Source: Candidatus Thorarchaeota archaeon
GTDB lineage: Archaea > Asgardarchaeota > Thorarchaeia > Thorarchaeales > Thorarchaeaceae
NCBI GenBank assembly: GCA_048882385.1
Contig: JBHLRQ010000003.1
Span: 11,126-75,125, forward strand
Direction of reading: 5' to 3'
DNA: 64,000 bases
Below the pieces are notes generated by a model. It saw nothing but the letters and a program-made list of their open reading frames with translations, was not told where the DNA came from and searched no databases. The position numbers and the translations under genes are program-made. Positions 2,750 to 10,882 of this stretch are shown here, one piece after another. How positions within the stretch are numbered: the first letter of the stretch is position 1; the number at the start of each line of letters is the position of its first letter.

Positions 2750-4258
2750 TCACCTCACAAAATGGCTCCTCCTGAGCCAATTAAGATCTCTTGAAAACAG
2801 ATCTCTGATGTCGTTTATTCCCATGGAAGCCATATACAATCGTCCAGAGCCAATCCCCCATGCCAGCACAGAGTCTTTGATACCCAATGGTCGTGTAACC
2901 TCTGGTCTGAATATTCCAGAACCTCCTAGCTCAATCCATCCTAGTTTCTCATGTTTTCCAAATGTTTCAACACTCGGTTCTGTGAATGGGAATTGTCCTG
3001 GTTTGAACTTGAGTTTCTCAATGCCAACAGCTTTGCAAATAGAGGTCAAATATCCAAGTAAGTCTCTTAGAGTTAATCCTTTGTCCATTATGATGCCCTC
3101 GCATTGATTGAACTCCTGAGCATGAGTAGCACTGAGAGTTTCACTTCTGAAATTACGATCAATGATGAACATCTTTTGTGGACTCTCTCTATGTTCGTAC
3201 AAATACCTCATTGATACAGGTGTAGTATGAGGTCTTAGACAAAGTCTAGTGGCCACCTCCTCACTATAAGGCCAGTCCCATCCTGTTGAACCTGTATTTC
3301 CTCCGTTCTCATGAACTGCTTTTACAGCTCTGTAGTATTTCTTATCCACAATGTGCCCGTGACTATATGGTGACGCCACTCTGAACTGGTCCTGAACTTC
3401 TCGGGATACATGATCCTGAGGAACGAAGAGTGAATCATGACCCCAAAACTCAGTTTCGACATACGGTCCAATCCATTCTGTGAAACCTAGTCCAACCATT
3501 ATCTCTCTGAGCCAGTCATTGAACTCACCATAGGGATGTTTCTTTCCATAATTGGCATAGACTGGTTGAATATCAACATTGTAGGGTCTGAAGGATTTGC
3601 CTTTCCAGTTTCCGCTAGCAAGTATCTCATGAGTTAGATTTCCTATACCCTCAACACCTGCATCGAGTAACTTTTCAATCTCCCCCTTCTTTGCTCCTAT
3701 CAGCTCAGCTTCAAATGTTTTGGTTACGCTCTCAGAAACAAGTTTTCGCTCTTGAGCCTGTTTAAGAATTGCTGCAAGATTCTGAGGTAATGTTTGCTTT
3801 CCATCTGAGAGCTGTTTCAAGATATCAGTAATCTCTGATACCGGGTTGTCTACAACTGTTCGTAGAACTGTAGATCCTTCTTCTTTGGATATTTGAATCC
3901 ACCCAGTTTTACGAGCCCAATTCATAGCTATTCCTTTTGCTTTAGTATCTAGTCCTGCTCGAGCAACAGCATCATCAAAAGTGGCTTTTCCTCCAAGGTC
4001 CTTAACTCCAAAAAAGAGTCTAACCTCTGGAAGCCCAGATTCAACGTATTCCACTCCTTCACTAGTCAAGGCATATGCCACCTTCTCTTTGGGATGAATC
4101 TGCACAAGACTTCTACTTGCCAGTGAATTAAGGATCGAAGTGACTCTCTCTTCTGCTTGGTCGAGATTCTTTGCAAGTTGAGCTGTGGAAACACGATGAT
4201 CTAGATTGAGTAGTTCTTGTAGTACTATTCTCTCACCTTCAGTCAACTGTTCGCTCAT
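2750..4258 (-). CDS. pheS: phenylalanine--tRNA ligase alpha subunit (archaeal type)
   Basis: 502 aa. N-terminal wHTH-like repeats are followed by a class II aaRS core (FRPYNVDIQPVYANYGK..., GWIELGGSGIFRPEV). It is adjacent to pheT. Confidence 0.88.
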   Translation of the reverse strand: MSEQLTEGERIVLQELLNLDHRVSTAQLAKNLDQAEERVTSILNSLASRSLVQIHPKEKVAYALTSEGVEYVESGLPEVRLFFGVKDLGGKATFDDAVARAGLDTKAKGIAMNWARKTGWIQISKEEGSTVLRTVVDNPVSEITDILKQLSDGKQTLPQNLAAILKQAQERKLVSESVTKTFEAELIGAKKGEIEKLLDAGVEGIGNLTHEILASGNWKGKSFRPYNVDIQPVYANYGKKHPYGEFNDWLREIMVGLGFTEWIGPYVETEFWGHDSLFVPQDHVSREVQDQFRVASPYSHGHIVDKKYYRAVKAVHENGGNTGSTGWDWPYSEEVATRLCLRPHTTPVSMRYLYEHRESPQKMFIIDRNFRSETLSATHAQEFNQCEGIIMDKGLTLRDLLGYLTSICKAVGIEKLKFKPGQFPFTEPSVETFGKHEKLGWIELGGSGIFRPEVTRPLGIKDSVLAWGIGSGRLYMASMGINDIRDLFSRDLNWLRRSHFVR

Positions 4259-8798: not shown

Positions 8799-9875
8799 CT
8801 ATAACTTTCGTTTTCCTAGAAGGAATTGTTCTACCCATCTCTCAGCTTTGTACATAGTTGTTGGAGTTGGGGGCATTTTGAATCCATATGCAGAAATTGA
8901 CTCAAGAGATCCAGCAAGGCCTCTCTTTAGAGCAAGTTTTGTACCACGTATAGCATCCATGAGAATTGGTCCTGCATTAGGTCCATCAGTCACTTCCATT
9001 CTGATGTCAATCTTGATGGGTGCTCCACCAAACTGACGCCCATTGATGTAGAAATAGGAATCTCGAGCATTGTCCATGAATTCAACCCAATCTGATGAAC
9101 CTGCAACAATAGGTGCATCATATGGAAGGTCTTGTCCTACAGCCTCGCTTTTCACTCCTCTCTTTCTCAAACGACCTCTATAATGAGAATCTATTGATTC
9201 TGCTCCTCCACCAATATCTAGCTGGTAGCTCTTGTCTACCTTCACACCTCTTGAAACTAATAATTGCAGTATATTCCTGTGAAGAACTGTGGAGCCAAGC
9301 TGATCTTGAATGTCATCTCCGACTAACGGGAGTCCTTTCTCTTCAAATTTCTTACTCCATTCGAGATCTGAGGCGATAGGAATGGGTGTGCCATTGATGT
9401 ATGCACAACCCGCTTCGAGAGCCGCATTAGCATAGTACTTTGTAGCTTCCTCTGCAGAACCAGGAATAAGGTTGATGAGAATCTCAGCTCCGGAGTCTTT
9501 GAGAACTTTAGCAACATCGACGTCCTTTGCTTTAGATTCGGTAACAAGCGCCTTTAGCATATCATCAAGACCATCAAGTGCTGGACCCTTCATGACCTCG
9601 ATACCTGTTTTGGGAACCTTTGCGAATGCCATTACATTGTTAGGTTTGGCGAATATCGCATCCGCCAGATCAGTACCTACTTTTGTGTCAGCTACATCAA
9701 AAGCTGCAACAAACTTGATATCCTTGACATGATATCCTGCGAAGTCTGGATGTCCAAGACCTACCATCTGCTTGTCTGCTCGTGCATCTTTGTAGAATTC
9801 AACACCTTGTATAAGTGCACTAGCACAGTTTCCAACTCCAACTATTGCAACTTTTATTCCATTCAAATAAGCCAC
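8799..9875 (-). CDS. myo-inositol-1-phosphate synthase (archaeal type)
   Basis: N-terminal NAD-binding motif VAIVGVGNCASALIQG. About 358 aa, which is typical of archaeal MIPS. Confidence 0.78.
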   Translation of the reverse strand: MAYLNGIKVAIVGVGNCASALIQGVEFYKDARADKQMVGLGHPDFAGYHVKDIKFVAAFDVADTKVGTDLADAIFAKPNNVMAFAKVPKTGIEVMKGPALDGLDDMLKALVTESKAKDVDVAKVLKDSGAEILINLIPGSAEEATKYYANAALEAGCAYINGTPIPIASDLEWSKKFEEKGLPLVGDDIQDQLGSTVLHRNILQLLVSRGVKVDKSYQLDIGGGAESIDSHYRGRLRKRGVKSEAVGQDLPYDAPIVAGSSDWVEFMDNARDSYFYINGRQFGGAPIKIDIRMEVTDGPNAGPILMDAIRGTKLALKRGLAGSLESISAYGFKMPPTPTTMYKAERWVEQFLLGKRKL

Positions 9876-9977
9876 CTCTGGTTCTAGCTTTGCGATTTCC
9901 TGTACATTTCTTATAAGTTATTCTATACACATAGAATAGTTAGGTCCCCGAAGAACTTATGTTGGTATGTTGCACTT

Positions 9978-10233
9978 ATTATGGTTGGACGAAAGGCTTG
10001 CGCTCATATGCTCCCGCGTCATCGAAAGTCGTGGGAATGACGCAACCGCGTTGAAAAAGCAATACGAATGTCCATCTGCAGGGAGATTCGGCTCCTACCC
10101 AATAGGGTTCAGGGAGATGCTGACACAGCGTGTGCATTGGAGCACCACTCATGTTTAAAAGTAAAAGAGGGTGGACCTCGAGCCCGAAAAAGGGCACCAA
10201 GTCTTAGGCGTAAAGCCTTCGTCCACCTTTTTC
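9978..10233 (+). ncRNA. structured GC-rich ncRNA, unclassified; possible SRP (7S) RNA
   Basis: A GC-rich island in an otherwise ORF-free 525-nt gap. The 5' strand TGGTTGGACGAAAGGCTTGCGC (9981-10004) is complementary to the 3' strand GCGTAAAGCCTTCGTCCACC (10208-10227), forming a long closing helix. Internal hairpins are seen (GCGTCAT/ATGACGC, GGAG/CTCC, ACCC-AATA-GGGT, GTGC/GCAC, GCCC-GAAAAA-GGGC). It ends in TTTTT (10228-10232), the archaeal oligo-T terminator. A TATA-like TTATAAG lies at about 9911. The only ORFs across it are short overlapping two-strand ORFs typical of noise. Confidence 0.45.
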
Positions 10234-10399
10234 TAGCAAAACTATCCAGTGGATGAGTTTATAGGCAGTTCAAACAATTCAAAGAACAGCAGTGCCCTCA
10301 AATTGAATCATAAGCTCCAGAGTTCCAGGCACAGCTTTGCGATCACTGAAGAAGATTCTACTTTTGGACGCCTGCAGAACACAGTGAACGTGAGTTATC

Positions 10400-10882
10400 A
10401 TGGGTTATCAAGAGAGAGAACCAATCGAGGCCGTAATTTCTGATCTCAAACCAAGGATGAAGAGTGTTAATATCTCATTCAAAGTTATCGAGAAAGGTGA
10501 AGTTCGAGAAGTAACATCCCGCGCAGATGGAGAGCAACATCGTGTATGCGACACTATTGTTGGAGACAGCTCTGGGAAAGTTACTGTGCCCCTATGGGAT
10601 GCCTCAATTGATGAAGTTGAAGCTGATAAAACCTACAGACTAGAAAATGGATATACTACCCTCTTTCAGGGTCATCTAAGATTGAACATCGGTCGATATG
10701 GTACACTGAAACCAGCTGAGGAAGAGATTGCTGAAATCAACGATGAAGTCGACATGTCTGAGCAAGAACATGAACGCAGACCTCGATACGGTGGTTATCG
10801 CGGAGGCGGACGACGTGGCGGTGGATACAGAGACCGTGATCGTCGTGGTGGCGGCGGACGAGACTTCAGTCGAGGATACTAA
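10400..10882 (+). CDS. single OB-fold ssDNA-binding protein (SSB/RPA-like) with RGG/GAR-like C-terminal tail
   Basis: About 110 aa with an OB-fold-like pattern, followed by RRPRYGGYRGGGRRGGGYRDRDRRGGGGRDFSRGY. Confidence 0.55.
   Translation: MGYQEREPIEAVISDLKPRMKSVNISFKVIEKGEVREVTSRADGEQHRVCDTIVGDSSGKVTVPLWDASIDEVEADKTYRLENGYTTLFQGHLRLNIGRYGTLKPAEEEIAEINDEVDMSEQEHERRPRYGGYRGGGRRGGGYRDRDRRGGGGRDFSRGY

Follow-up and report, generated by a model that had tools for sequence, protein, structure and literature searches.

The spacer between the gene for myo-inositol-1-phosphate synthase (MIPS) and the gene for an OB-fold protein in a Candidatus Thorarchaeota archaeon raises the question of whether it holds a gene of its own and, if so, for what kind of molecule. 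We analysed this spacer within a window of 64,000 nt (the whole stretch of DNA under study, from contig JBHLRQ010000003.1 of assembly GCA_048882385.1), in which the original prediction, made from the letters alone, had placed an unannotated structured noncoding RNA (ncRNA) of about 255 nt, possibly a signal recognition particle (SRP) RNA, with RNase P RNA or a novel RNA as fallbacks. That a structured ncRNA is encoded here is strongly supported by conservation, covariation, a promoter of its own and the lack of a coding signal, with the correction that it starts at about 9986/9987 and not at 9978; as to its identity, the evidence favours the novel RNA. We are highly confident that this is a genuine new structured RNA gene, and our sequence comparisons make it probable that it is a free-standing gene for a highly structured ncRNA of about 245 nt, belonging to a Thorarchaeota family that is absent from Rfam.

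Conservation, covariation and predicted fold

A search with the MIPS protein retrieved 67 loci from contigs representing one genome per species, about 55 of them from Thorarchaeota with MIPS identities of 72 to 94%. BLASTN, iterated nhmmer and covariance models found one full-length copy of the RNA at each of 50 loci in Thorarchaeota species genomes, and one further copy truncated by a contig end. An exact-pattern scan of metagenome contigs gave 34 matches, 20 of which are full-length family members by covariance model; a scan of viral contigs for the RNA gave no match, and no second copy is present in the 64-kb window. In the loci sampled, the family is so far specific to Thorarchaeota, as judged by these sequence searches. 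A search of the full-text literature turned up no account of this RNA and none of new RNA families in Asgard archaea.

A plain MAFFT alignment of all 50 sequences, folded with RNAalifold, recovered only the invariant helices, because the variable ones were misaligned. It was replaced by a consensus of the 22 closer sequences, from which the covariance models R1 and R2 were built and to which all copies were then aligned. Pair statistics were taken on 63 distinct sequences, with a similar outcome for 51. In the 63 sequences, standard pairs occupy 93.2% of cells, compared with 40 to 47% when the 3' partners are slid by 1 to 3 columns, and in 55 of the 65 pairs both partners have changed. The model reaches a covariation score of 0.396 and the slid controls no more than 0.082, and none of 500 column shuffles reached the observed values. 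An all-against-all mutual-information scan also ranks the model's pairs at the top; it revealed no candidate for a multi-pair pseudoknot and one isolated signal, 216/326 (G-U/A-C). Single-sequence minimum free energy (MFE) folds of divergent members reproduce the same architecture, and P3, one of the helices listed below, has a wholly different sequence in distant members and is still a hairpin.

Two checks had been proposed along with the original prediction, folding of the segment and covariation among its homologues, and both speak for it. The plus strand of 9978–10233 is far more stable than its shuffles (MFE of -99.8 kcal/mol versus -74.0 ± 5.1 kcal/mol for dinucleotide shuffles; z = -5.1, with 0 of 200 as good), and the minus strand of the same segment gives z = -3.9. 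The helix that joins the 5' and 3' ends, predicted as the pairing of GGACGAAAGGCUUGCGC with GCGUAAAGCCUUCGUCC, covaries across the homologues. Its outermost TGGT/ACC pairing is peculiar to this window and falls 5' of the predicted RNA start. The RNA and its elements, with helices numbered P1 to P8, are as follows.

9986–10233, plus strand: RNA gene of about 245 nt (full-length covariance-model match of 252 bits, homologues at 70 loci, covariation)
9987–10004, plus strand: 5' strand of P1 (P1a GGACGA at 9987–9992, P1b at 9996–9997, P1c at 9999–10004), predicted to pair with 10207–10224
10009–10014, plus strand: 5' strand of P2, UGCUCC, predicted to pair with GGAGCA at 10139–10144
10015–10044, plus strand: P3 hairpin, GCGUCAU.../...AUGACGC (10 of 10 pairs change on both sides)
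10047–10053 and 10058–10060 with 10119–10121 and 10126–10132, plus strand: P4 stem (10 of 10 pairs change on both sides)
10065–10090, plus strand: P5 hairpin, CGAAU-G-UCC / GGA-G-AUUCG (99% paired; both sides change in 7 of 8 pairs)
10093–10115, plus strand: P6 hairpin, UCCU-ACCC / GGGU-(UCA)-GGGA (P6a 100% paired; 4 of 4 pairs change on both sides)
10145–10174, plus strand: P7 hairpin, CCACUC / GGGUGG (96 to 97% paired; variation mostly G-U; the weakest helix by covariation)
10167–10179, plus strand: 13-nt block GAGGGUGGACCUC, near-invariant (at least 45 of the 50 genome copies)
10183–10194, plus strand: P8 hairpin, CCC-GAAAAA-GGG (both sides change in 3 of 3 pairs; 12 sequences have GC in place of CG)
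10207–10224, plus strand: 3' strand of P1, GGCGUA ... GC ... UCGUCC, the partner of 9987–10004
10225–10233, plus strand: 3' tail, with single-stranded ACC and then a U-run (CCACC in most copies), the presumed termination site

As predicted from the comparative data, a long terminal helix with interruptions, P1, closes a multi-junction core, and the whole comprises about 14 helices, nearly all of them covarying. P2 lies inside P1 and encloses P3 and P4, P4 carries P5 and P6, and P7 and P8 follow. In P1, both sides change in 12 of the 14 pairs and the remaining two are invariant, with 89 to 98% of cells paired. P2 is 92% paired, with changes on both sides in five of its six pairs, and is also predicted by the single-sequence folds of divergent members. 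A competing pairing would join the GAG of its 3' strand GGAGCA to the CUC at 10177–10179, where the variation is mostly G-U; the covariance models for the two alternatives score within about 4 bits of each other, and the larger number of compensatory changes leads us to prefer P2, which is not decisive. P4 encloses the three-way junction with P5 and P6 and is among the top mutual-information signals. The P8 hairpin had been foreseen as GCCC-GAAAAA-GGGC (10182–10195), and its covariation confirms that it is real.

Several elements of the RNA are conserved in sequence as well. The internal mismatch of P5 (10070/10085) is G.G in 32 and A.A in 8 sequences, which suggests a conserved noncanonical purine-purine pair, and the 3-nt bulge UCA of P6 (10109–10111) is near-invariant. 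The string GUUCAG, in P6, is the most conserved of the family, and TTCAG is invariant across the 50 sequences. The loop of P7 is about 18 nt long and A-rich, with a conserved AUGUUCA; the P3 loop AAAGUCGUGGGAA is conserved only in closer relatives. The 13-nt block GAGGGUGGACCUC has three mutually exclusive pairing options, namely P7 (with CCACUC), a pairing of its CUC to the GAG in GGAGCA, and a hairpin formed locally by GAGG and CCUC, and these alternatives may reflect conformational switching or a binding site. The block is also complementary to the 3' tail GUCCACCU. We rejected a pairing of the tail GUCCACC with the internal GGUGGAC as a conserved feature, since the tail variants CCCCA, UCU and UCC are not compensated.

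We also noted that AAGUC occurs twice, in the P3 loop (10026–10030) and in the junction after P8 (10199–10203), and that GUUCA occurs in P6 (10107–10111) and in the P7 loop of most homologues, the P7 loop of the window having GUUUA (10152–10156). The duplicated AAGUC and GUUCA may be paired binding sites. Other motifs were considered by eye and rejected: the UCA bulge is flanked by covarying Watson-Crick pairs and does not form a K-turn, a bulge-helix-bulge motif is absent, and the U...A required for a T-loop is not conserved. Mimicry of an anti-Shine-Dalgarno sequence by the CCACCU tail is speculative and unsupported.

Transcription signals and neighbouring genes

Upstream of the RNA lie two conserved blocks that would make up its promoter, the first with a purine-rich element like the archaeal B recognition element (BRE).

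9949–9964, plus strand: putative promoter, with BRE-like GAAGAA, TATA-like box CTTATGT (9956–9962) and GG
9973–9984, plus strand: candidate A/T-rich proximal promoter element ACTTATTATGG (ATACAATAT in most relatives), at -12 to -4

A YTTAWNN box starts 31 to 29 nt before the first G of GGACG in 62 of the 63 distinct copies, and the block is kept even in the most divergent copies, as CTTAATTGG. The geometry of archaeal BRE and TATA elements is well established, and because the distance from box to start is canonical for archaea we infer that this block is the promoter of the RNA; the spacing of the box therefore places the predicted start at about 9986/9987, at the base of P1. For the A/T-rich block, a role as a promoter element is likewise inferred. 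At the other end, the TTTTT run that had been pointed out is present at 10229–10233, and the predicted RNA end falls within this U-run. Across the family, the 12 nt after CCACC have a median of 5 T, compared with a background of 26% T, so that termination at the T-run is plausible and less certain than the start.

The spacer itself lies between the MIPS gene (8799–9875, minus strand) and the OB-fold gene (10400–10882, plus strand), whose product is a single OB-fold of the Sulfolobus SSB / human SOSS-B1 type and which we call the SSB gene. The reported gap of 525 nt is there and measures 524 nt (9875 to 10400). Its description as containing a sharply GC-enriched island was too strong, as the enrichment is moderate (0.49–0.54, versus 0.35 in the adjacent spacer and about 0.43–0.45 in the flanking genes).

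The original prediction had also named a TATA-like TTATAAG as preceding the RNA. The string exists (9911–9917), about 75 nt upstream of the RNA, a distance too large for it to act as the RNA's promoter, and it belongs to MIPS, the RNA's own box being CTTATGT. Adjoining TTATAAG is a perfect palindrome, TTCTAT-N4-ATAGAA (9921–9936), about 50 to 60 nt upstream of the MIPS start and the only exact match to this pattern in the 64-kb window. Its distance from MIPS is fixed in nearly all loci, including loci without the RNA and one in which the RNA lies about 700 nt away. Because both elements track MIPS, also in genomes that lack the RNA, we assign them to the MIPS promoter, where they are probably the TATA box and a transcription-factor operator. 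On the MIPS gene itself, we observed that its listed GTG start (9875) overlaps a Shine-Dalgarno-like GAGGTG string (9864–9875 of the window, minus strand) and that many tblastn matches to MIPS begin at residue 4; the TTG at 9866–9864 may be the true start codon.

All of the 70 copies adjoin MIPS, in divergent orientation and with one copy per locus, and across these loci the MIPS proteins are 72 to 94% identical. The block that these loci share consists of a VTT-domain gene, a CpXC gene, MIPS, the divergent RNA, optionally the SSB gene and a convergent HdrD/GlcF-like Fe-S gene. The RNA and MIPS stay neighbours even where a gene has been inserted between them. Four Thorarchaeota loci with sufficient flanking DNA (L021, L035, L041 and L042) lack the RNA even by unfiltered covariance-model scoring; their MIPS proteins are 74 to 81% identical to that of the window, and the spacer of L041 is only about 130 nt long. 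As a separate observation, the inserted gene is a 213-aa hydrophobic open reading frame (ORF) in a clade of six loci (L024, at 3218–3859, and L048, L055, L026, L071 and L093), in which the promoter block of the RNA is kept and the MIPS palindrome was not detected.

This strict linkage would be explained if the RNA acted in trans as a regulator connected with inositol-phosphate or lipid metabolism, and among the alternatives that we considered this one survives best, while still being rather improbable. The persistence of the pair across so wide a range of MIPS identities speaks for it; however, the whole block of VTT, CpXC, MIPS, RNA and HdrD-like genes is syntenic, so that the linkage may be positional only. 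The palindrome stays with MIPS where the RNA is absent or distant, which gives no sign of a shared operator and led us to reject co-regulation of MIPS and the RNA through this site. The two transcripts are not predicted to overlap, and the fold is far more elaborate than a base-pairing regulator would need. As far as tested, then, the linkage between the RNA and MIPS appears to be only positional.

A very small probability attaches to the idea that the RNA acts in cis, as a 5' leader or riboswitch for the SSB gene, which in the window has the same orientation and begins 168 nt downstream of the RNA. The terminal helix with the T-run behind it looks like a terminator, and about 22 of 49 genome loci have an SSB gene 3' of the RNA. 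Synteny contradicts this reading. At the remaining loci no gene on the same strand follows, and the RNA is fully conserved while ending about 25 to 50 nt from the stop codon of the convergent HdrD-like gene. Where the SSB gene is present, a conserved TATA-like box, GAGTTTAWAGG, separates it from the RNA. Because about half of the loci lack a downstream gene on the same strand and SSB has a box of its own, we do not regard the RNA as a leader; it is, by these sequence signals, an independent transcription unit with its own promoter. For the SSB gene this would mean a promoter of its own and a 5' untranslated region of about 110 nt, which is unusually long. Between 10255 and 10299 of the window we observed a conserved TATA-like GAGTTTATAGG, about 25 to 30 nt past the RNA end, and a conserved AACAGCAGTGCCCT near the implied start.

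Identity and possible role of the RNA

Searches against Rfam 15 (4227 families) gave no match anywhere in the 64-kb window at gathering score, Archaea_SRP and the RNase P families included, no match at E <= 10 in the 571-nt region 9850–10420, and none at E <= 10 at the RNA position of nine divergent homologues. ARAGORN found no tRNA or transfer-messenger RNA (tmRNA) in the window, and there is no T-arm beside the 3' strand of P1. A group I intron (RF00028) was considered and rejected: AUCUGCAGG and GUUCAGAGA resemble the Q and R elements of such introns, but in this RNA they are part of the P5 loop and the P6 stem and have other covarying partners, and there is no Rfam match. An identity as SRP RNA, RNase P RNA or tRNA/tmRNA is not supported by these comparisons.

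One rival identity is a reduced or divergent RNase P RNA; reduced archaeal RNase P RNAs (type T, in Pyrobaculum) went undetected for years. The terminal helix, the multiple junctions and the housekeeping-like promoter would fit, and AAAGUCG in the P3 loop of closer relatives is reminiscent of the conserved region CR-I GAAAGUCC. However, only the closer subgroup has this string, distant members having unrelated sequence in its place, and by eye no block that is conserved throughout the family looks like CR-I or CR-V. The mutual-information scan shows no multi-pair long-range pseudoknot of the P4 type. The order of elements also misfits, in that a single-stranded conserved block precedes the first hairpin, and neither the archaeal, type-T, nuclear and bacterial RNase P families nor RNase MRP match at E <= 10. 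The fallback to RNase P RNA is thus unsupported, and we consider it very unlikely.

Even less credible is a highly divergent archaeal SRP (7S) RNA, the identity that had been put forward at the outset. A size of about 245 nt, the pairing of the 5' and 3' ends and a free-standing gene with a T-run are all compatible with it, and GGAGCA resembles the 3' side of SRP helix 8, the SRP54 site with its GNRA tetraloop and conserved internal loops, next to helix 6. This sole GGAGCA is, however, paired with UGCUCC as the 3' strand of P2; a small GUGC-AUUGGA-GCAC hairpin can be formed in the window alone and is neither conserved in relatives nor covarying. The strings that had been likened to helix 5 of bacterial 4.5S RNA turn out not to be paired with each other: CUCCCGCGUCAU is part of P2/P3 and CAGCGUGUGC of P4, and the two pair and covary with separate segments. 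There is no long helix 5 and no pair of helices 8 and 6. The RNA has a multi-junction core where SRP RNA has a rod with helices 6 and 8 at its end, and neither Archaea_SRP (RF01857) nor any other SRP family matches the window's copy or the nine divergent homologues, at gathering score or at E <= 10.

That the region encodes a small protein and is structured only incidentally can be dismissed almost entirely: short ORFs do overlap the segment on both strands, as had been noted, with 62 to 73 codons in the window and an open frame of at least 60 codons in 81% of homologues, but no frame stays open in all homologues (the shortest open stretches are 14 to 24 codons), and of 780 indel runs counted relative to the window, 693 have lengths that 3 does not divide. 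The substitutions compensate one another within base pairs, and the 63-codon ORF on the plus strand begins at 9967, before the point where transcription is predicted to start.

We therefore return to the reading that we prefer, a free-standing gene for a structured ncRNA, and to what this RNA might do. Transcription would proceed from the BRE/TATA-type promoter at 9949–9964, starting at the base of the terminal helix, and would end in the T-run after CCACC. The product would act in trans as a stable RNA, most likely as the core of a ribonucleoprotein (RNP) and less likely as a ribozyme or ligand-binding RNA, and the invariant bulge, the mismatch and the 13-nt GAGGGUGGACCUC would be sites of protein, ligand or tertiary contacts. 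We favour an RNP core acting in trans because of the closed multi-junction fold, a conservation beyond pairing needs, the housekeeping-style promoter and single-copy vertical inheritance; in certain helices, the bulge and the mismatch, conservation exceeds what pairing requires. A role as the core of an RNP is nevertheless put forward tentatively, at somewhat less than even confidence, and a ribozyme or ligand-binding RNA is unlikely on present evidence. Our results lead us to speculate, with a little less assurance than for the RNP core itself, that the RNA is the founding member of an undescribed class of complex-folded Asgard RNAs, either as a subunit of an unknown RNP or as a new ribozyme or ligand-binding RNA, in which the UCA bulge, the G.G/A.A mismatch and GAGGGUGGACCUC form the active or binding site.

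Several points weigh against these proposals. The pair counts come from alignments fitted to the structural model, which raises the percentages paired, although the slid controls and the mutual-information scan argue for a real covariation signal. Little covariation supports P7 or the preference for P2 over GAG/CUC, and the ends of the transcript are predicted from sequence only. The sampling of homologues comprised MIPS-anchored loci and one exact-pattern scan of metagenome contigs, which bears on any statement about distribution outside this locus or outside Thorarchaeota. At the four loci without it, the RNA may have been lost or relocated, and it is possibly dispensable. No gene for a partner protein was found near the RNA, and the results do not discriminate between an RNP scaffold and a ribozyme, a ligand sensor or a base-pairing regulator.

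Comparison with known RNAs and significance

New large, intricately folded RNA classes are rare, and RNAs of such complexity have mostly proved to be ribozymes, ligand sensors or RNP cores. To our knowledge, almost no large folded RNA classes are known in archaea beyond rRNA, tRNA, RNase P, SRP and guide RNAs, and Asgard archaea are the archaea closest to eukaryotes. An RNA conserved across a whole Asgard lineage, with unusually clean support from the comparison of sequences, would thus point to an unknown piece of Thorarchaeota cell biology, and the covariance model, the predicted transcript ends and the candidate functional nucleotides make it a concrete, testable target. The case also shows that annotation based on Rfam leaves real, conserved RNA genes unannotated in Asgard metagenome-assembled genomes.

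Among the established RNAs, archaeal SRP RNA (RF01857) is similar in size, free-standing and paired at its ends, with a promoter of its own and a T-run, and abundance is presumed; unlike it, the Thorarchaeota RNA has no covariance-model match, lacks the helix 8/6 motifs, the long helix 5 and the Alu-domain signature, and is built around a multi-junction core instead of a rod. Archaeal RNase P RNA (type A, RF00373; type T, RF02357) likewise combines many helices, a terminal helix and conserved junction nucleotides in a housekeeping-style gene, yet it differs from the Thorarchaeota RNA in the order of its elements, and in the latter there is no covariance-model match, no family-wide CR-I or CR-V and no signal for a P4-type pseudoknot.

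Parallels may also be found among orphan RNAs. OLE, GOLLD, HEARO, ROOL and the raiA motif are large structured ncRNAs of bacteria and phages, all of them Rfam families, which were found by comparative genomics at a time when their functions were unknown and for which RNP or ribozyme roles were suspected. The Thorarchaeota RNA resembles them in being lineage-restricted and intricately folded, with many covarying helices and conserved unpaired nucleotides. In contrast to them, it is archaeal (Asgard), smaller than most, unrelated to them in sequence or structure (no Rfam match) and linked to no mobile element or partner protein gene. In archaea, Klein, Misulovin and Eddy reportedly described in 2002 HgcC, HgcE, HgcF and HgcG, GC-rich ncRNA genes of AT-rich archaea, and our RNA gene is, just as these, a GC-enriched, structured, intergenic island in an archaeal genome of lower GC content, free-standing and of unknown function. 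It is unrelated to them in sequence, has no Rfam match, comes from a different phylum and is larger, and the comparative support for it is far stronger.

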